Below are positions 5,435 to 46,285 of a stretch of DNA of 50,111 nucleotides, in pieces. The stretch spans positions 1 to 50,111 of IMG/VR virus record IMGVR_UViG_3300003322_000802. One strand, 5' to 3'. This DNA comes from a virus. Below the pieces are notes generated by a model. The model was not told the DNA's origin. It made no database searches and was given only the letters and a program-made list of their open reading frames with translations. Numbering within the stretch: position 1 is the first letter of the stretch; each line of letters opens with the position of its first letter. A program made the position numbers and the translations under genes.

Positions 5435-6127
5435 ATGGCGATGACGTACAAGTTCCCGACGTGGTGGGGTGGCGAGACTTTCATCGAGTCTACTGAGCCC
5501 CCGCAGATCCACAAGAAGCTGATCGCCATCCGCAAGGCGGTCGGTGGGCTGAAGGCAAAGAAGGAAGCCACGGGTCCCAACTTCGCGGTGCGTAAGGCCA
5601 GTGACCTTATGGCGAAGCTGCGAACGGCCATCGACAAGGAGGAGTGCCATGTGATGGTTGTCAGCCAGTCGATCATCACCGGGGACCTGGACAAGATCCC
5701 TCCTGATGGCAAGGGTCGCGTGTTCCGGTCGGCGGCTACCGTGACCACCCGGGTCCGTATCTGCGCCCCCGATGGCAGCTTCGTCGAGGGCGAGGGCTCC
5801 GGTGGTGGCGGAGATGCTGATGACAAGGCGGTAGGCAAGGCGTCGACGTACAGCTACAAGGACGCCCTCATCAAGCTGCTGACCCTGCCGGATGCGGATA
5901 CCGTGGACACGGATGACGAGGCGGAGCACGGTGCCGTTCCTGCCATCGGCGCTGAGGCGGGGATCATCATCGAGGCGGTCGCCAAGAGCGAGAGCCGTGA
6001 GGATCTGAAGCAGTATGCTGCCGACGCCAAGAAGCTGCGCCTCCATGAGCAGAAGGCCGTGGGTGACGCGATCCGGGCCCGTCTGGCGAGTCTCGCTGGT
6101 AAGGGCGAAGCCGGGGGTGGCAAGTGA
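5435..6127 (+). CDS. erf: ERF-family single-strand annealing recombinase
   Basis: The block GGGGDADDKAVGKASTYSYKDALIKLL matches the ERF (PF04404) core. An exonuclease and an SSB gene follow. Confidence 0.75.
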   Translation: MAMTYKFPTWWGGETFIESTEPPQIHKKLIAIRKAVGGLKAKKEATGPNFAVRKASDLMAKLRTAIDKEECHVMVVSQSIITGDLDKIPPDGKGRVFRSAATVTTRVRICAPDGSFVEGEGSGGGGDADDKAVGKASTYSYKDALIKLLTLPDADTVDTDDEAEHGAVPAIGAEAGIIIEAVAKSESREDLKQYAADAKKLRLHEQKAVGDAIRARLASLAGKGEAGGGK

Positions 6128-6282
6128 CCGAGGATACCTGGTTCGCCGCGATCATCGGTGCCTCCCTCCTTACGGGTCTGGCCATCCTCGCAATCTGCCT
6201 CACGGCGGCCTCGTTTCATGAGGACAACAGCAAGGTGGACATCGTGCGTGCAACGATCGGCTGCAGAGCGGAGAAGCAGTGA
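6124..6282 (+). CDS. Small membrane protein (52 aa)
   Basis: GTGA overlap with the erf stop. TM segment AAIIGASLLTGLAILAICLTAA. Confidence 0.45.
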   Translation: MTEDTWFAAIIGASLLTGLAILAICLTAASFHEDNSKVDIVRATIGCRAEKQ

Positions 6283-6368
6283 TCCGGCTGGGGATTCTGC
6301 TGGTGGCCCTGTGCTTCATTCTGGAGATGGTGGGTAAGCGTGGGATGGACCAGGGCAAGCTCAATTGA
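6279..6368 (+). CDS. Hydrophobic micro-ORF (29 aa)
   Basis: GTGA overlap with the previous micro-ORF. Sequence VIRLGILLVALCFILEMVG. Confidence 0.3.
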   Translation: MIRLGILLVALCFILEMVGKRGMDQGKLN

Positions 6369-7125
6369 CCGGGCGCTAGCCTGCCTGGGTTCCACCATCC
6401 TCCCCGCTGGCCCGGATCATCGATCCGAGTCGACGCTGGAAGCCGCCGCCTGGGGCACCACCATGCACCACTGGAAGGAGACGGGGGAGGTGCTGGCTCC
6501 GGATGGGTACAAGAAACTCGAACCCCTGGTCACCAAACGCCTCAGGAAGGCCTGGGGAACCCCTGAAGCCATCGAGGAGGCCCGTACCCGCCTCTGGCCC
6601 TCGGATGGGCGCCACGAGCTTTCTGTGGCCGTTCACACGGTCAACGCCAATCTCCACTACCCCGATGTGGTGTTTGAGCACGGGGCGGATCAGGCTAGGT
6701 GGACAGACCAGTGGAACGATGAGTGGGTTACCGGCTCCATGGACTACCTGGGGGATGTGCTGGGGGATCCGTGGGTGGATGACCTGAAGACGGGGCGCCA
6801 CCCCACGGCCCCCGATGACCCTCAGATCCTCTTCTACGCTCTCGCAGCCTGGCTCATGGGTGAGAAGAAAGCTGACAGGGTTGTGACATCGATCACCCAC
6901 TGGCCGAGGTCCCCGGTTGGGGGTCTTCCCGATAGGTACTGGGGTGAGATCAGCGCGGAGGATCTTGACAGCTTCCACCGGAGACTTATAATGGGTAGAC
7001 GGAAGCGAGCGTGGGCCGATCCCGAGCGACCGGAGCTACAGGTGGGCCCTCACTGTAGGTACTGCCCAGCGCGAGCTAACTGTCCCGCGCTACGGGAGGC
7101 TCATGAGTCTGGTGAAGAGTGGTAA
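6340..7125 (+). CDS. PD-(D/E)XK Cas4/RecB-like exonuclease with a 4-Cys cluster
   Basis: VDDLKTG (D-x-K), QILFYALA (QxxxY), an N-terminal Cys plus C-terminal CRYCPARANC (CX2CX5C). Confidence 0.75.
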   Translation: MGWTRASSIDRALACLGSTILPAGPDHRSESTLEAAAWGTTMHHWKETGEVLAPDGYKKLEPLVTKRLRKAWGTPEAIEEARTRLWPSDGRHELSVAVHTVNANLHYPDVVFEHGADQARWTDQWNDEWVTGSMDYLGDVLGDPWVDDLKTGRHPTAPDDPQILFYALAAWLMGEKKADRVVTSITHWPRSPVGGLPDRYWGEISAEDLDSFHRRLIMGRRKRAWADPERPELQVGPHCRYCPARANCPALREAHESGEEW

Positions 7126-7360
7126 GAATGGCAAGAACATCTACAAGCTGTCCGATGACCTGTACACGTACGGGATGCCGGGGGAGTTTGGACCGCGAGT
7201 TGAGCGGTATATCGTGCGCAAAGATCGCGCGACGAGGGGACGTCCGGCTTACCGTCGCGTCCCAGGTGGAGTTATTCCCCCAGGGCTCAAGCCGGAAGTG
7301 AATCCTCCCATGAAGGTGATGGAGGAGTTGCTGCTGGCGGATAAGACGGCGCAGGCGTGA
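7103..7360 (+). CDS. Hypothetical protein (85 aa)
   Basis: ORF with a coding-like composition. No motif recognised. Confidence 0.5.
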   Translation: MSLVKSGKNGKNIYKLSDDLYTYGMPGEFGPRVERYIVRKDRATRGRPAYRRVPGGVIPPGLKPEVNPPMKVMEELLLADKTAQA

Positions 7361-7365
7361 CTCAG

Positions 7366-7443
7366 ATGTGGTGGCTATGGGCCTATCTTGGGTTCATGGC
7401 TTGTGGTTTTGGGTTTCTGGTCTACATGACAAAGGATGACTGA
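7366..7443 (+). CDS. Hydrophobic micro-ORF (25 aa, MWWLWAYLGFMACGFGFLVYMTKDD)
   Basis: TGATG overlap with the ssb start. One TM-like segment. Confidence 0.35.
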   Translation: MWWLWAYLGFMACGFGFLVYMTKDD

Positions 7444-7817
7444 TGCATTTCGCTACGTTCACGGGTAAGGTTCAGGAAGTAAAGGAGTTCGGCAAGGCGG
7501 TCAAGTTGACGCTGGTGTCGCTGCCGGGGAAGGACAGCGGCTACGAGCCCGAGTACATGGAGGCCGTGTTCAAGGCCGACAGCTGGCAGGGCAAGGCGAT
7601 CCTGGCCCTACAGAAGGGTGACGACGATGTCACCATCGCCGGCAGTGTGAAGCGCAAGAAGTGGGCCAATGGCAACGGGTACTCGCAGGAGATCCTGTTC
7701 GGGGAGCTGCGGATCCCCTGGTCGCTGCGGAAGCGGGAGAAGGCTGAGGGCGCCGTCTCCACCTCGCCCCCGAAGGCGAGCGAAGCGGGCGGTGGTCTCG
7801 ACGACCTCCCTTTCTGA
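7443..7817 (+). CDS. ssb: Single-stranded DNA-binding protein
   Basis: OB-fold-sized protein with a Gly/Pro-rich linker and the canonical acidic tail ending DDLPF. Confidence 0.8.
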   Translation: MHFATFTGKVQEVKEFGKAVKLTLVSLPGKDSGYEPEYMEAVFKADSWQGKAILALQKGDDDVTIAGSVKRKKWANGNGYSQEILFGELRIPWSLRKREKAEGAVSTSPPKASEAGGGLDDLPF

Positions 7818-20280: not shown

Positions 20281-20324
20281 AAAAGGCCCCTGGAACCTAG
20301 TGCTCCAGGGGCCTTTGTTGTTTT
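20281..20324. terminator. Bidirectional intrinsic terminator between the convergent arms
   Basis: A 10-bp stem, GGCCCCTGGA (20285-94) with TCCAGGGGCC (20304-13), is flanked by AAAA upstream and TTTGTTGTTTT downstream. Confidence 0.8.
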
Positions 20325-20327
20325 CAG

Positions 20328-20501: not shown

Positions 20502-20798
20502 ATGAACCCTCTGAAAGTTGTGTACGCTGTCTTTGTGACCGATGACTCTGGCCTGGCCACGATGTGCTACAGCCACGGGGCACAGGAAAGTGAGGCTATT
20601 GCAGTTGAGCTAGCTAAGGTGCTCAACGAGATCGAGACCGAGGACCACCCGGAGAGCGACGTCTACTATTTCGTGCGGGAGATCGACGTCTGGCCGATCC
20701 CGAGCCGGGCCCATAGCTACGCGAAGCGGTGGGAACAGCTGGAGCTACCAGGGGACTGGGGGCACCGCGGTCCAGCTGACTGGTCGCGCGGAGAGTGA
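20502..20798 (+). CDS. Orphan plus-strand ORF (98 aa) embedded antisense in the late arm
   Basis: Good codon use (gag atc gag acc gag gac ...), whereas both overlapping minus-strand frames use poor codons. Confidence 0.45.
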   Translation: MNPLKVVYAVFVTDDSGLATMCYSHGAQESEAIAVELAKVLNEIETEDHPESDVYYFVREIDVWPIPSRAHSYAKRWEQLELPGDWGHRGPADWSRGE

Positions 20799-21144
20799 GG
20801 CCCAGCTGCGTCATCATCCTGTTAACCGTGGCTACCGGGTGGCTGATGGCGTCCTCATTGGTGCAGCGAACTACCACCCAGCCGATCTCCTTCAGCCGCT
20901 GCGAGCGCTGGTAGTCTTTCTCGATCTGCTCCGGTGACATATGCCCCTCGTCATCCACCTCGATGACCACCCGGTAGTCGATCAGGGCGAAGTCAGCGAA
21001 GAAAGGCACATCATTGCCGTGGTAAAGGAAGAACGGAAACTGGGTACGGTACCTGACTCCCATCGAGGCAACCGCGGGCTCGATGGCATGTTCCGCTGGG
21101 GTGCCCTTGTAGAGGCTGGCCCATACTTTATGCATGAAGCTCAT
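20623..21144 (-). CDS. DUF559 (Vsr-like PD-(D/E)XK) endonuclease-domain protein with a low-complexity C-terminal tail
   Basis: FADFALIDYRVVIEVDDEGH...RSQRLKEIGWVVVRCTNED matches DUF559 (PF04480). The last 55 or so codons are R/S/P-rich with rare codons. Confidence 0.65.
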   Translation of the reverse strand: MSFMHKVWASLYKGTPAEHAIEPAVASMGVRYRTQFPFFLYHGNDVPFFADFALIDYRVVIEVDDEGHMSPEQIEKDYQRSQRLKEIGWVVVRCTNEDAISHPVATVNRMMTQLGLTLRATSQLDRGAPSPLVAPAVPTASRSYGPGSGSARRRSPARNSRRRSPGGPRSRSR

Positions 21145-21161: not shown

Positions 21162-21485
21162 CTATGGCTTGAGGTACGGGTCGCCCTTGATGAGATCACT
21201 CACATCGATGAACTCCACGTAGCTGCAGGCCTTGACCGCATGGGTCCAGTCGCTGAGAGAGGCAACCCAGGCGGCCAACGCGGCCAGCTCCGGTGGCGAG
21301 GTACAGGCGGCCTCAATGTTCCCCTCCGCATCCAGGGTGCATCGGACGAAGGTGACATCGGGGAGAACGGGAACCGGCCCTACGTGGCAGGGGGTCACCT
21401 TCGCTGGAACAGCGCGCTCAATTATCCTTGGGCCACAGCTTGCCAGACTGCACCCAAGCGTCAATAGCCACATCAATCGAAGCAT
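21162..21485 (-). CDS. Outer-membrane lipoprotein spanin (o-spanin)
   Basis: Signal peptide with lipobox LASC. The mature part is Pro/Cys-rich. The start is embedded in the 3' end of the i-spanin gene in another frame. Confidence 0.7.
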   Translation of the reverse strand: MLRLMWLLTLGCSLASCGPRIIERAVPAKVTPCHVGPVPVLPDVTFVRCTLDAEGNIEAACTSPPELAALAAWVASLSDWTHAVKACSYVEFIDVSDLIKGDPYLKP

Positions 21486-21711
21486 CCTTCGCCTTCTCCT
21501 TGGCCGCCTGGAATCGTAGGGAGTCGCGAATGGCCCGATCCTTCTCGGCAGCGACGGCCCTGGCGGCCTCCTGGTCGCGGGTGGACTTGGCGAGCACCGC
21601 CTCCTCCTCCCTTGACTTCATCTTCGATCTATAATAAGCCACGGCGACGATGAGTGCAACTACCATGCCAACCTCCAGCACCGTCGCGATCAGCTCCCCG
21701 TAGGTTCCCAT
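21418..21711 (-). CDS. Inner-membrane spanin (i-spanin)
   Basis: N-terminal TM (VLEVGMVVALIVAVAYY) plus a charged coiled-coil periplasmic domain. Overlaps the o-spanin gene by 68 nt. Confidence 0.65.
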   Translation of the reverse strand: MGTYGELIATVLEVGMVVALIVAVAYYRSKMKSREEEAVLAKSTRDQEAARAVAAEKDRAIRDSLRFQAAKEKAKDASIDVAIDAWVQSGKLWPKDN

Positions 21712-40783: not shown

Positions 40784-42475
40784 CTAGTCCTCGTTGAAGG
40801 TAAGGTAGGTTGGCTGCTTGGATCCGAAGGGGAGGTTGTCCCGGGTCAGCATTTTACTGGTGCCGCGGCGACGGGCGTCCATGTCGAGGGTGTGGGCCTG
40901 ACGGGCCTGAGCGAGCTGTGCCGCTTCCCGCTCCACCCACCACTCGTAGGTGCCAGGGATCGCAGCCTCCTTCGGCTTCGCTTTCGCAAAGTGGTGGTAG
41001 CACTCGCGCCACAGGTACAGGAAGCTGTCCGTGACATCGTTGGGGCAGGCCTTGTCCTCGAACAGCTTGTTCTTGTGGGCCAGCTCCCCCTTGGCGCCCT
41101 TGGCCAGATCCCACTGTACGGAGCAGAGCTGATCCTCCAGGTCCGTGCCAGGGATGATCCTGATGCGGCCCAGGGTGAAGTCCGAGTTCATCATCTCGAT
41201 GTAGTCGTTCTTCTCCTGCTTCTTGGCAGGAACGACAGGGAGCCCGTAGCGCTGGATCAGCGTCTCGGCGAAGCTCTTCGCCATGGAGCCGCCGGTATCC
41301 ACCGCAATCACCTCGGGGCGACCGAAGCGCTCGATGGTATTCTGGACCAGATCCACCACCTGATCGATCAGGAGGTGCGGGTGCTTCTCATCGTAGACGT
41401 GGCGGAGTTCCCCCAGCGTCTCGCTCCAGGCGGCCACCGTGATGGCGGTGGGATCATGGAAGCCTACGTCCAGGCCCATCACTAGGTGCCATGGGGCACC
41501 CTCCTCGGGGAGGCCGGTGGGATTAGTATCTGTGCGGTTCGGGCGCCAGGTGACCGAGTGCTCCGCCTTCCGCTTCTGGTCCATGTAGTTATAGACCAGG
41601 CCCTCCGCCGCGGGAATCCAGCGACCCAGGTACTCGCGCTGCCAGGTGGGATGATCGTCACTCCAGCCCTTCAGCTCCTTGAGGTCCAGGGCCTCCTGCC
41701 ACTGGTGCGGCATGTGTTCATTGTCCCTCAGGCTCCAGTGGTGAAAGCTCCACAGGAACTTACGGGGCCGACCCCAGGGGTCATCCTTGCCGTAGGGAAC
41801 CAGCCAGGGCTTTCCCTCGTCCTTGTGCCCCTCCTCCTCATTGACGGCATCGGTGCACGTTGCCTGCCAGAAGGGGCCCGCGAAGATGGAGCCTGGGGTT
41901 CCGATCATCATGATGCGGCCCTTACGCGAGATACGCTGCGGGGCAAGGACATCCGTGATCAGCTCATCGAGAATGGCGGGAGGGAAGCTCTTGCACTCAT
42001 CGATAATGTAGAGATCCGCCTCCATGCCGCGGATGTACTCGATGGCCTGGCGATCCTCGGCACCCAGCAGGTAACCCACGGAGCCGTTTTGATGTTGCCA
42101 GCGGAGTTCCGTGGAGTTGAACTCCAGGCCCAGGCTGTGCTTCCGGTCGAGGAACGGGATTCCGCTCCGCGAGCCATGCCAGAAGTTACGCTTGAGAGCC
42201 TTCAGGGTCAGGGAGATGATGAGCACCATGCTCCCTGGGTTGGCTTCGCCCGTGATAAGAGCCGCGGAGGACGCCATGAAGCTCTTACCCACGCGGCGGG
42301 GGCACAGGGCGCTCACCCACGGGTTGTCATCCAGGATCATCTGCTGCTGGACATGGGCCAGGGAATTGAAAATGTCCCGAGCCCGTTGCTCCCCAGCGGC
42401 CAGCAGCTGCTCACTGTTGAGCGCCAAGCCTCCGGTACGGATCAGGCCAGCGTCAAGAACCCCCTCGAAGCTCAC
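40784..42475 (-). CDS. terL: Terminase large subunit
   Basis: Walker A-like CPRRVGKS, Walker B LYIIDECKSF, and a C-terminal RNaseH-like nuclease block (VIAVDTGG). GTGA-coupled start. Confidence 0.85.
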   Translation of the reverse strand: MSFEGVLDAGLIRTGGLALNSEQLLAAGEQRARDIFNSLAHVQQQMILDDNPWVSALCPRRVGKSFMASSAALITGEANPGSMVLIISLTLKALKRNFWHGSRSGIPFLDRKHSLGLEFNSTELRWQHQNGSVGYLLGAEDRQAIEYIRGMEADLYIIDECKSFPPAILDELITDVLAPQRISRKGRIMMIGTPGSIFAGPFWQATCTDAVNEEEGHKDEGKPWLVPYGKDDPWGRPRKFLWSFHHWSLRDNEHMPHQWQEALDLKELKGWSDDHPTWQREYLGRWIPAAEGLVYNYMDQKRKAEHSVTWRPNRTDTNPTGLPEEGAPWHLVMGLDVGFHDPTAITVAAWSETLGELRHVYDEKHPHLLIDQVVDLVQNTIERFGRPEVIAVDTGGSMAKSFAETLIQRYGLPVVPAKKQEKNDYIEMMNSDFTLGRIRIIPGTDLEDQLCSVQWDLAKGAKGELAHKNKLFEDKACPNDVTDSFLYLWRECYHHFAKAKPKEAAIPGTYEWWVEREAAQLAQARQAHTLDMDARRRGTSKMLTRDNLPFGSKQPTYLTFNED

Positions 42476-42723: not shown

Positions 42724-43169
42724 CAGTCTCTCTCCTTACGCGGAGACACCGGGTCCCACGTCCAGCCGAAGTCAAACAGGGGGGCGCATCCATTGGTCCG
42801 GTGGGTGAATCTCCCCACCCGGATGCCCAGGGTATCCATCACGTGGTTGAAGAGGAGGCGACCGATGCCGAAGCCCCGGAAGCCGGTCTTCTTGACGAAG
42901 ACGTAGTGGAGCAGGTCCGGCGCCTCGTAGCACACGAAGCCCACCAGCCGCTTGCCACCGTCACTCTTCGCCACCTCGGCCACGTCGACTCGAGCCCCCC
43001 GGGTCATGAGCCCCGCGATGCAGGACCGGGTGACCTCCCAGATCATGTTGTTGGGGATGCAGCCGGCCCAGGGTGAGGTGCGCCAGGAACGGATCCAGCC
43101 GTCCAGGATGAAGTTGAAATCCTCAGGGACCGCGGGGCGAATGGTGACCGCTGACGCCAGCTCATTCAT
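42723..43169 (-). CDS. GNAT-family N-acetyltransferase
   Basis: Acetyl-CoA motif FRGFGIGRLLF (R/Q-x-x-G-x-G/A) preceded by a beta-strand VGFVCYE. ATGAATGA overlap with the upstream gene. Confidence 0.7.
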   Translation of the reverse strand: MNELASAVTIRPAVPEDFNFILDGWIRSWRTSPWAGCIPNNMIWEVTRSCIAGLMTRGARVDVAEVAKSDGGKRLVGFVCYEAPDLLHYVFVKKTGFRGFGIGRLLFNHVMDTLGIRVGRFTHRTNGCAPLFDFGWTWDPVSPRKERD

Positions 43170-43680
43170 CCGGATCCTCTTTCCACGCGTGCTCCCCGGA
43201 CTCACCCCTGCGCTCCGCCTGGATGGTCTCCAGGATCTTACTGACCGCGGTGTGCGGCGCCATCTTGTTCCTGGCCAGCTTCTTCTGGTCCTCGTGACCC
43301 TTGGCCAGGCGCTCCAGGAAGTCGGTGCGAACCCGAGGCTCCTGCCCCAGCATGAACTTCAGCATCTCGTTGATGCGTTTGGTAGGCGACATGATCTGGT
43401 CCAGCTTCTCATAGGCCTTCGCAAGATCAATCTTAGTTTTCGCCGCCTTCTCCAGCATCCCGGTGATAGCCGTCATTTTTACCACCACCTGCCGATCCGC
43501 GAACTCCCCGGAGCCGCCGTCGATCGAGATCATCTCCCGGTTGACGCGCTCCTGCATGGTGCGGATCATCCTCAGCTGCTGGTCCAGCATCCTCTCGAGG
43601 TCAGCGGCACGTCCCTGCGCCGTTATGGTGGCCTCGATGCGCTCCTCTTCCGTCCAATTCGCTGGTCTACTCATCCTCAT
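43162..43680 (-). CDS. Helical protein at the head of the late operon; small-terminase candidate
   Basis: The role is inferred from position only. In-frame upstream ATGs at 43806 and 43881 would extend it with low-complexity sequence. Confidence 0.35.
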   Translation of the reverse strand: MRMSRPANWTEEERIEATITAQGRAADLERMLDQQLRMIRTMQERVNREMISIDGGSGEFADRQVVVKMTAITGMLEKAAKTKIDLAKAYEKLDQIMSPTKRINEMLKFMLGQEPRVRTDFLERLAKGHEDQKKLARNKMAPHTAVSKILETIQAERRGESGEHAWKEDPDE

Positions 43681-44069
43681 CCAATCCGATAGGTAAATAC
43701 ACGAAGAGGCAGGGAGGACTTGACCCTCTACCCGCCTCTCTTCTTCTCCGCTGCTCAGGTTATCGTGGCTACTCGCAGAGCCGCGCCTCCGGCCTGACTC
43801 CGTCATTGCCACCAGCTCCACTATCCCGGGGCCGAGGTAACGAGGCACCCGGGGGAGCGAGGTACGAGCGACTATGCCCAACGCGCGCCCCGTCCACCTG
43901 CAGCCTCGACTCCCTCCGCGCGCTCCACTCCCAGCCGCTCCAGGGCCGCGGGGCCCGCTGGCGACTCGGCAGCCCTCGCGCCAGCCCGGTGCAGCTGGTA
44001 TCCAGAGCGGGTACCCGTGGGCACCCTCGCTCAGTCGCCGCGTGGGCTCTCAGAATCAGGTACATATAC

Positions 44070-44098
44070 AATGTAACCACTAAAAATTAGGCTGTCAA
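44070..44098 (-). promoter_or_regulatory. Leftward sigma70 promoter: TTGACA, 17 nt, TACATT
   Basis: The reverse complement of 44093-44098 is TTGACA and that of 44070-44075 is TACATT. It lies in an AT-rich island and points at the late arm. Confidence 0.55.
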
Positions 44099-44116
44099 GG
44101 GGGGTACAGCGTGAGA

Positions 44117-44143
44117 TGACAGAACTGTCACACAACTGTCACA
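44117..44143. repeat. Operator-like repeats: inverted TGACAG-aa-CTGTCA, plus the 10-bp direct repeat AACTGTCACA x2 with 11-bp phasing
   Basis: Direct reading. Related copies are CTGTCA at 44092-97 (overlapping the -35) and TTGTGAC at 44184-90 and 44293-99. Confidence 0.6.
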
Positions 44144-44333
44144 TAGCTGCGATGCGTCATAGGTGTAAGTACTTGATCTCTGGTTGTGACCTTGTGCGTT
44201 ATTTCTGAGGGTGGAGATTGGGCAAAGCTAGGCGATGCTTTGGGAATTGGGGGCTGGGGACCCCAATAACTTAGCTAGGGTCGGTCTGAAAATTGTGACT
44301 CCGCGCGTGGCGTAGAGCAAAACCCGTGCCAAA

Positions 44334-44345
44334 TTCCCCGGGGAA
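44334..44345. promoter_or_regulatory. Perfect 12-bp palindrome TTCCCCGGGGAA (candidate activator site)
   Basis: Direct reading. It is centred about 85 bp upstream of the -24 element at 44424. Confidence 0.4.
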
Positions 44346-44423
44346 ACCCACCCCTGGTCCATAGACCCCAGCCGATCGGGCATAGATCCTGCATGTTGAT
44401 GGGATCTGGGGGCTGTAGACCCC

Positions 44424-44439
44424 TGGCACGAGGGTTGCT
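44424..44439 (+). promoter_or_regulatory. Sigma54 (RpoN) -24/-12 promoter element TGGCACG-N4-TTGCT
   Basis: CTGGCACGAGGGTTGCT is an exact match to TGGCAC-N5-TTGC with the preferred flanks. It is oriented toward the plus-strand early genes. Confidence 0.55.
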
Positions 44440-44674
44440 AGCCGTCCAGATCGTAAGCTGGCTCACTGCAGATCCTGCACTGTAGCGATCTGCCCCGCCT
44501 GTAGTCGATCAAGTCACCCTGCCAACCCCGCATGATCACTCAACGGCAACCCCCATGCCAGATCCAAGTGGAGTCGTTGACTACAGAGGTCTGTAGCCCC
44601 CTGCGGAATCATTGGGTTCCTGGCGACGCGATCCCGCCTCTCGACCTGGCACCGGAGCTGCACTAGAGGAGGTC

Positions 44675-44911
44675 ATGCGCCACTCGATGCAGACCATGCC
44701 GACCGTCGCCTGCACCCCTGATCAGCTCGCGACTCCCGATTGCCGCAAGCCCGCTCGTGGCATGCGTCTTGCCAAGCCGACCCGCGCCGAGATCACCGCT
44801 GCGGTTCTCGCATTCAGCTCCGGTGGCCTCGATCTGATCGCCGAGCTGGAGGGTGGTGAGCAGGTGGCCCGGATCATGCACGGCACCCCGATGCCGACCT
44901 GGCCCCGCTGA
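44675..44911 (+). CDS. First early-arm protein (78 aa), hypothetical
   Basis: Strong SD AGGAGG lies 3-4 nt before the ATG. Confidence 0.6.
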   Translation: MRHSMQTMPTVACTPDQLATPDCRKPARGMRLAKPTRAEITAAVLAFSSGGLDLIAELEGGEQVARIMHGTPMPTWPR

Positions 44912-44965
44912 GCACTGTCGATTTCCCTTGACCGCGGGCAACCGCGAGAGTAGGATGGTCTGGAG

Positions 44966-45679: not shown

Positions 45680-46158
45680 AGAGATCCCTGGCAAGATCGA
45701 AATGGGATGGCAACGGGATCATGTAGTGACATAACTCACTCTGGATCCCTACAGGCCACCCATATGCGGAGCCCGCTGGCTACCCGGCGTGATCTGTAGC
45801 CCCATCAACCTCTAGGCTGATCTCCAGAGCCTAGCCCTAAGCGTAAAGGCGAGGGTCGATACATCTGAGAGAGCAATGAGCGCCACTAGCGAGCCTGTTA
45901 AGGCGAAGCCATGTAGCTCACCAGGAGGGGGACCAGTACCCCGCACAGCATCGGACATTGCCCTACGATCTAGATCGCGCGATGCCTAGTAAGCGTCGTG
46001 TAGGCTAGGGAGGCCCTTGTCACGAGCTGAGAGCCCGAGTGTCATCAACGCTACCGCTCTCCGAGCCTGCAATGCAGCCACAATGCCAATGGTCCCGGGT
46101 CGCCGGATCACTGGCCGAGTGTGCAAGCGGCAGGCCATAAAGAGAGTGCACCGAGGGG

Positions 46159-46187
46159 TTGACACGAGGGCCGGACTGCACTATCTT
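46159..46187 (+). promoter_or_regulatory. Sigma70 promoter: TTGACA, 17 nt, TATCTT
   Basis: TTGACA at 46159-64 and TATCTT at 46182-87, directly upstream of the tRNA-like element. Confidence 0.55.
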
Positions 46188-46188
46188 C

Positions 46189-46256
46189 GCTCTTGTCCAG
46201 GAACGGTGAGTAGGCCATGAAGGCCGAAAATGAGGGTTCGAGTCCCCACAAGAGCA
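46189..46256 (+). ncRNA. Degenerate tRNA-like element (no CCA, weak D and T stems, 5-nt or atypical 7-nt anticodon-like loop)
   Basis: An 8-bp acceptor-like helix, GCTCTTGT with ACAAGAGC. T-loop word GGGTTCGAGTCCCC. Central hairpin GGCC-ATGAA-GGCC. Confidence 0.35.
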
Positions 46257-46285
46257 CTAGCCGCTAGGCACGAAAGGATACTCCC

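Follow-up and report, generated by a model that had tools for sequence, protein, structure and literature searches.

Putative sigma-54 recognition elements in the divergent control region of an uncultured phage and in other viral genomes

Sigma-54 promoters are silent without an ATP-driven activator. Recognition by sigma-54 is conserved, and a PspF variant devoid of the DNA-binding domain is able to activate any such promoter from solution. The classical examples (S. meliloti nifH, E. coli glnAp2 and P. putida Pu) have in common the GG-N10-GC arrangement and the extended consensus YTGGCACGr-N3-TTGCW. On the E. coli glnA operon, a sigma-70 promoter (p1) and a sigma-54 promoter (p2) are found in tandem. 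The transcription programmes of phages, on the other hand, are explained by host sigma-70 promoters, phage sigma factors or modifiers, and phage RNA polymerases. The T7 promoters A1, A2 and A3, at the leading end of the genome, and the inward-facing promoters at the ends of phi29 are closely spaced, face the early genes and are used by the host RNA polymerase, and they belong to the sigma-70/sigma-A class, which works without an ATP-dependent activator. A search of the full-text literature returned no published report of natural sigma-54-dependent phage promoters, the nearest entries being a T7-like Pectobacterium phage for which HHpred gave a weak match to sigma-54, and a number of engineered systems. 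In E. coli, non-productive and intragenic sigma-54 binding sites have reportedly been mapped by ChIP (PMC4591121).

The window, by which we mean the whole stretch of 50,111 nt analysed here, represents a phage genome of approximately 50 kb, complete or almost so, organised in two arms. The plus-strand (early) arm begins at 44675, continues past the window end and extends to about 20 kb; it starts with small genes without assigned function, followed by genes for a Dam methylase, Erf, a PD-(D/E)XK nuclease, a DnaB-like helicase and PolA; an RNA ligase, a class II RNR and ThyX are also encoded in this arm. The minus-strand (late) arm extends from 43672 down to about 20.6 kb and carries the large terminase, portal, capsid, large virion protein and lysis genes. 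Since the early and late arms diverge from it, the 1-kb non-coding stretch at 43673-44674 can be regarded as a divergent control region (Table 1). At the opposite side, where the two arms converge, a hairpin resembling a bidirectional terminator is present at 20290-20325, and the last late-arm gene (20623-21144) encodes a DUF559/Vsr-like endonuclease. The product of the first early gene (78 aa) had no match in Pfam, PHROG or NCBIfam, and Rfam and tRNA scans of the window also gave no match.

The initial annotation had stated that the genome encodes no GAFTGA-type activator or sigma factor, and this, together with the absence of an RNA polymerase, was confirmed by a six-frame regular-expression search and by Pfam searches of the 73 ORFs. 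The latter found neither a sigma-54 activator domain, a sigma factor or an RNA polymerase, nor an integrase or a repressor, and the phage therefore depends on the host polymerase and looks lytic. The late arm contains an overlapping spanin pair (21162-21711, minus strand), in which the i-spanin has an N-terminal TM helix and a coiled coil, while the embedded o-spanin starts with MLRLMWLLTLGCSLASC and has the lipobox LASC. Such a pair indicates a diderm (Gram-negative) host and excludes the Actinobacteria, which are a major phylum without RpoN. Neither a megablast search with the region nor tblastn searches with TerL, capsid and portal among 50,697 GenBank phages yielded a usable cultured relative, and no prophage copy was found by a TerL profile scan of 185,579 species genomes. 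A composite probe combining palindrome and site gave three scattered genome matches (Belnapia, a Planctomycetota MAG and a Desulfurivibrionaceae MAG), which provide no host lead because they are at chance level. Metagenomic relatives, fetched via the terminase, were in contrast numerous.

A sigma-54 (-24/-12) promoter, CTGGCACGAGGGTTGCT, had previously been placed at 44423-44439 on the plus strand. Both coordinates and strand were borne out, as were the AGGAGG Shine-Dalgarno sequence and the ATG at 44675, approximately 225 nt past the predicted start near 44450. The site is, however, not the only exact match in the window, as it had been judged to be by eye, since a second exact TGGCAC-N5-TTGC, TGGCACGGGTTTTGC, is present at 44317-44331 on the minus strand. 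The two sites are 107 bp apart and back-to-back, and the minus-strand site outscores the plus-strand one (20.2 vs 18.7 bits). In both exact 15-nt cores (44424-44438 on the plus and 44317-44331 on the minus strand) the GG at -24 and the GC at -12 are exactly 10 bp apart, and the flanks fit the extended consensus (CTGGCACGA...TTGCT and TTGGCACGG...TTGCT). Both lie in the non-coding region (43673-44674) and point outward to the two arms, a pattern common to the relatives described below.

Table 1. Coordinates of elements and genes in and around the divergent control region of the window
Feature	Position	Strand	Remarks
Flagged sigma-54-type -24/-12 element, CTGGCACGAGGGTTGCT	44423..44439	+	Exact match, 18.7 bits; faces early arm; predicted start ~44450
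Second sigma-54-type element, TTGGCACGGGTTTTGCT	44316..44332	-	Exact match, 20.2 bits; faces late arm; predicted start ~44305
Weaker sigma-54-like site, CTGGCATGGGGGTTGCC	44545..44561	-	15.6 bits; antisense in early leader
Proximal weak sigma-54-like site, CTGGCACCGGAGCTGCA	44646..44662	+	14.1 bits; -12 C 14 nt before first early ATG
Third strong sigma-54-like match, TTGGCATGGTAGTTGCA	21655..21671	-	20.1 bits; inside i-spanin coding sequence, TM-helix part
Palindrome TTCCCCGGGGAA, window copy of TTTCCCC box	about 44334..44346		Directly against minus-strand -24 element
GGGG-N8-CCCC mini-palindrome, GGGGGCTGTAGACCCC	44408..44423		Directly against plus-strand -24 element
Second GGGG-N8-CCCC copy, GGGGGCTGGGGACCCC	44249..44264		No adjacent sigma-54-like site
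Near-consensus sigma-70 promoter, TTGACA-N17-TACATT	44070..44098	-	Faces late arm, ~400 nt upstream of first late ATG
GACA-N4-TGTC repeats	44119..44140		Just upstream of -35 of late sigma-70 promoter
Sigma-70-like promoter, TTGACC-N17-TAGGAT	44928..44956	+	In front of second early gene
First late-arm gene	43162..43672	-	Probable start ATG 43672; homologues in L002, L003, L030
Large terminase	40784-42475	-	Follows first late gene
First early gene	44675..44911	+	78 aa ORF, AGGAGG Shine-Dalgarno

The window was scanned using an approximate position weight matrix (PWM) based on the sigma-54 promoter consensus reportedly compiled by Barrios et al. 1999, as is the extended consensus. Three matches of at least 18 bits were obtained, versus 0.04 expected per shuffled window. 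The scores of the two exact sites (18.7-20.2 bits) are comparable to those of the strong promoters nifH (19.2) and Pu (19.7). As with the classical promoters, the elements are intergenic and gene-facing, though they differ in being located in a lytic phage, clustered back-to-back or in tandem, without a cognate activator gene. The third strong match, at 21655-21671 on the minus strand, may represent either an internal promoter, an intragenic binding site or a chance match. Weaker one-mismatch copies were found at approximately 44545(-), 44646(+) and 44757(+), in or beside the divergent region, and minus-oriented sites at a position similar to 44545(-) are present in the relatives L002 and L012. 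Two further minus-strand sites, at 46073-46089 (15.8 bits) and 46122-46138 (12.9 bits), lie in an ORF-poor gap of the early arm (45680-46285), where they could belong to an antisense promoter or a small minus-strand gene.

With 10 specified bases in the core and one strong match inside a coding sequence (21655(-)), the motif might be thought to occur by chance in GC-rich DNA. This is effectively refuted by the numbers: two exact TGGCAC-N5-TTGC sites were observed in the window against 0.08 expected (100 shuffles), five of the 11 window matches with at most one mismatch fall inside 450 bp, and both the conservation across genomes and the control matrices point the same way.

Motif clusters occur in the same intergenic region of relatives having the same two-arm layout, with terminases 44-64% identical and GC contents of 41-70%. 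Five strong sites were found in L002, two in L003 and ten in L030; in the 21.6-kb locus of the latter, all 10 matches of at least 12 bits were intergenic, and seven tandem sites, 41-77 bp apart, occupy the early-facing strand. Clusters are also present in L012, L019 and L007 (41% GC). Over five genomes, the intergenic region makes up 4.8% of the DNA, yet it holds 18 of the 24 matches of at least 14 bits and eight of the nine of at least 18 bits, while control matrices with permuted columns (300 in total) averaged 0.11 intergenic matches and never exceeded 3. A dyad-enrichment search blind to sigma-54 ranked GGCA-N6-TTGC first (15 vs 0.39 expected, p=3.5e-19) and GGGG-N8-CCCC second (18 vs 0.96 expected). 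The motif is thus conserved beyond the background sequence conservation. Orientation is consistent as well, a single late-facing site being present on the late side, and between one and seven early-facing sites on the early side; the late-facing site is orthologous in six genomes (the window, L002, L003, L030, L012 and L019) and preceded by a conserved TTTCCCC box. With position and orientation conserved, the motif at the top of an unbiased search and flanks that fit the extended consensus, the original assignment to the sigma-54 (-24/-12) class is well supported.

The position of the proximal weak site is also fixed in the window, L002 and L003, where exactly 14 nt separate its -12 C from the A of the ATG that opens the first early gene. 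No Shine-Dalgarno sequence precedes this gene in L002 and L003, in line with a leaderless transcript starting at this site. Transcription from the window copy (44646-44662) would similarly begin approximately 2 nt before the first early ATG and give a leaderless mRNA. The feature is nevertheless patchy within the group, since about half of the relatives have no motif (L009, L010, L014 and L004) and L031 has a single site. A swap of promoter type was considered for the motif-less L009, in which TTGACA-containing repeats lie on the early-facing side, but these lack convincing -10 boxes. The related contigs L007, L008, L012 and L032 begin or end inside the divergent control region, either because repeats break assemblies there or because physical genome termini are located there.

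The initial annotation had gone further and proposed that the early arm may be gated by a host enhancer-binding protein (EBP), which would act from the 12-bp palindrome TTCCCCGGGGAA on one sigma-54 promoter at 44423-44439. The palindrome is indeed present at 44334-44345. Its centre precedes the -24 GG by 86 bp and the predicted plus-strand start by approximately 110 bp, the latter being a canonical enhancer distance, and the lack of a phage-encoded activator also agrees with this proposal. However, the site is not unique, and the palindrome adjoins the minus-strand -24 element and is of a kind that occurs at chance frequency (12 perfect 12-bp palindromes in the window). Only the window and L009 preserve the dyad symmetry, and L009 retains the TTTCCCC box without a neighbouring sigma-54-like site; L002, L003, L030, L012 and L019 have just the TTTCCCC half, at a spacing of 3 to 9 nt from the -24 GG. 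The relatives that keep the promoter elements do not, in other words, keep the palindrome as a dyad upstream activating sequence. By eye, it fits neither the NtrC nor the NifA enhancer consensus. A lone early-arm promoter with this enhancer is therefore very improbable: the absence of a phage activator stands, while the single site is replaced by at least two strong back-to-back sites facing both arms.

The palindrome is not the only element found directly against a -24 box. In the closest clade of the window, GGGG-N8-CCCC directly precedes the early-facing sites, and the composite of this mini-palindrome and a site recurs in the L030 array and in L002. Given the predicted starts at about 44450(+) and 44305(-), each abutting element is near -35 of one promoter and -110 of the other: the centre of TTCCCCGGGGAA is at approximately -35 from the minus-strand and -110 from the plus-strand start, and that of GGGGGCTGTAGACCCC at approximately -35 from the plus-strand and -110 from the minus-strand start. 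The elements at about -110, which for each promoter is the palindrome abutting the other, are lineage-specific and not conserved dyads. Unlike the classical sigma-54 promoters, the sites have no recognisable conserved enhancer at -80 to -150, but lineage-specific elements abutting the -24 box.

The late arm has in addition a near-consensus sigma-70 promoter of its own, counterparts of which are present in L030, L009 and L010 (12/12 perfect in the last two) and, by eye, in L002. With the late-facing element (44316-44332, minus strand) about 200 bp upstream of it, the arrangement resembles glnA p1/p2, though it is found in a phage and lacks NtrC-type sites. The GACA-N4-TGTC repeats that precede the -35 of this sigma-70 promoter are likely an operator for a regulator, and similar GACA/TGTC palindromes occur in L009. 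No sigma-70-like promoter was found upstream of the first early gene in the window scan. The late leader, within 43673-44140, is long, GC-rich and untranslated, with no Rfam match and no intrinsic terminator, and may be a regulated leader or a non-coding RNA.

The distribution of the motif beyond this phage group was assessed by scanning IMG/VR for two exact TGGCACG-N4-TTGC sites 15-45 bp apart. Such tandem sites were found in at least 120 viral stretches falling into at least 67 megablast clusters, compared to 0 for the reversed-motif control. Some of the stretches could be host-derived provirus flanks. Among the matches listed, 231 distinct exact sites had C/T at -27 in 82%, A/G after TGGCACG in 69% and A/T at -11 in 87% of cases, and the positions left unspecified by the search pattern hence reproduce the extended sigma-54 consensus at the flanks. 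The Aeromonas phage LAh_7 was examined as a cultured anchor, since it shares a 165-bp stretch with L057, but it has no sigma-54-like sites.

These data bear on the possibility that the repeats are bound by some other protein, such as a phage regulator, a replication initiator (iterons) or the terminase (pac/cos), and only resemble the sigma-54 consensus. The multiple copies in both orientations, in a long non-coding region beside the packaging genes, would be in line with this, as would the repeat unit of the close clade, which exceeds the sigma-54 core by the GGGG-N8-CCCC directly against it, and the several related contigs that end inside the control region. Against it, the 17-nt consensus, including positions that were not searched for, recurs in phages without detectable protein similarity, in at least 67 viral clusters and at GC contents from 36% to 65%, where a phage-specific DNA-binding protein would be expected to drift. 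The flanking add-on motifs differ by lineage while the core is constant. Unlike what would be expected of a phage-specific operator or iteron array, the core is not confined to one lineage; the same sites are also borne by elements with terminal inverted repeats (L046), and no co-occurring phage gene was found, in a comparison limited by the fast divergence of the early proteins. Binding by such a protein instead of sigma-54 therefore appears improbable. A consensus common to phages that share no proteins and range from 36 to 70% GC argues for a universal host factor over a lineage-specific phage protein, and sigma-54 is the only factor known to have this recognition specificity. We thus consider that the sites are probably sigma-54 recognition elements, with a probability of about 0.8 on the basis of the sequence comparisons.

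The arrangement of the sites in other viral contigs is partly what would be expected of promoters. L036, found with the composite-unit probe, has the same layout as the window, although no similarity could be detected between their proteins (terminase E=0.02): five sigma-54-like sites face one arm, the last approximately 60 nt before the first gene of that arm, and a TTGACA-N18-TATACT promoter faces the other. At 7330-7460 of this contig, at least 10 copies of the iteron CACGTTGC are packed between the sigma-54-like sites, and these may constitute a replication origin inside the same control region. The largest cluster among the matches listed consists of linear elements of approximately 11 kb with perfect terminal inverted repeats and three inward-facing sites per end. 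In L046 (1-300 and 11484-11783) and about 25 similar contigs of IMG sample 3300045988, the terminal inverted repeats are at least 300 bp long, and every repeat contains three sigma-54-like sites that point inward, recur with a period of 58 bp and each follow a TTTAACA motif. A remnant of an Illumina adapter at the start of the L046 contig suggests that a true genome end has been reached. Closely spaced early-facing elements in a non-coding region and inward-facing triplets at the ends of linear elements are reminiscent of T7 and phi29, respectively, but the elements here are of the sigma-54 type.

Other arrangements, extremely dense arrays, are hard to reconcile with ordinary promoters. L060, a 147-kb viral contig, has near-consensus sites spaced 27-29 bp apart in blocks of one orientation at 5660-6445, with 41 sites in 6.5 kb, while L102 (3561-3780) and L116 (417-600) contain repeated 35-bp palindromes, each made up of two abutting face-to-face sites.

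Such arrays suggest a different role, in which the sites bind sigma-54 or its holoenzyme mainly for purposes other than productive initiation. Incoming or replicating phage DNA could sequester sigma-54, shutting down the host regulon or freeing core polymerase; alternatively, bound sites could act as roadblocks or occluders that tune neighbouring sigma-70 promoters. The dense arrays of L030 and L060, the pairs of L102 and L116, which cannot both fire, the antisense site 44545(-) inside the early leader and the absence of an activator from the window and from all of the 159 sequences (1.5 Mb) are consistent with this. In E. coli, closed complexes of sigma-54 that bind without transcription, including intragenic ones, are documented (PMC4591121). 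These bacterial sites have a strong consensus and may be occupied without nearby activators, which could also hold for 21655(-) and 44545(-), but they are scattered and single, whereas the phage arrays are concentrated in a control region. On the other hand, the window holds just two strong and about three weak sites, arranged divergently toward genes. The gene-directed orientation in the relatives, L036 and the terminal-repeat elements would not be needed in a pure decoy, and the fixed 14-nt spacing between site and ATG points to initiation. A mainly non-productive role in sequestration or occupancy is therefore rather unlikely, while it keeps some weight because of the missing activator, the tight spacing in L030, the 27-29 bp arrays and the abutting face-to-face pairs.

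Promoter function of the sites for the two arms has, in our estimate, slightly better than even odds. It is favoured by the gene-directed orientation, the fixed distance to the ATG and the inward-facing arrays at the termini, and also by the first early gene having no other promoter in front of it. Counting against it, the L030 tandem sites with a spacing of 41-46 bp, the 27-29 bp arrays and the abutting pairs are too tight for all of them to be independent promoters, a near-consensus sigma-70 promoter also faces the late arm, the motif is absent from about half of the relatives, and our searches identified neither an activator nor a conserved canonical enhancer. In the search for a hidden activator, NCBIfam and PHROGs, as well as PDB sequence searches with the two conserved unassigned proteins, were all negative. 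A regular-expression search for GAFTGA and the RpoN box, and tblastn with PspF and RpoN queries (run with no positive control), were also negative, with no GAFTGA protein or RpoN box in the 159 sequences (1.5 Mb). No phage gene was found to co-occur with the motif, though the rapid divergence of the early proteins weakens this comparison.

The explanation we favour for these observations is that the host sigma-54 holoenzyme would bind the sites as closed complexes, and that an ATP-dependent activator, not recognisably encoded by the phage, would then trigger transcription of both arms. We infer that this activator would be either a host enhancer-binding protein or an unrecognised phage factor, possibly acting via the lineage-specific TTTCCCC box and GGGG-N8-CCCC element that adjoin each -24 box.

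Elements of this type are well known, whereas their use in the control regions of phages, in arrays and with no activator encoded by the phage, appears to be novel. A lytic phage relying on sigma-54 promoters must either couple infection to host signalling or bring a new way of opening the closed complex. Both alternatives would constitute new biology, and might also provide tight orthogonal expression parts. That many unrelated uncultured phages, including the present one, use arrays of near-consensus host sigma-54 elements in control regions or at genome termini without encoding a canonical activator is a tentative proposition, which we regard as possible though at odds clearly short of even. 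If true, the arrays would be fired by a new non-AAA+ or unrecognisable phage factor or by a host activator triggered by infection; alternatively, they would capture sigma-54 and thereby silence the host sigma-54 regulon. The presence of such arrays in at least 67 independent viral clusters makes the question a general one.
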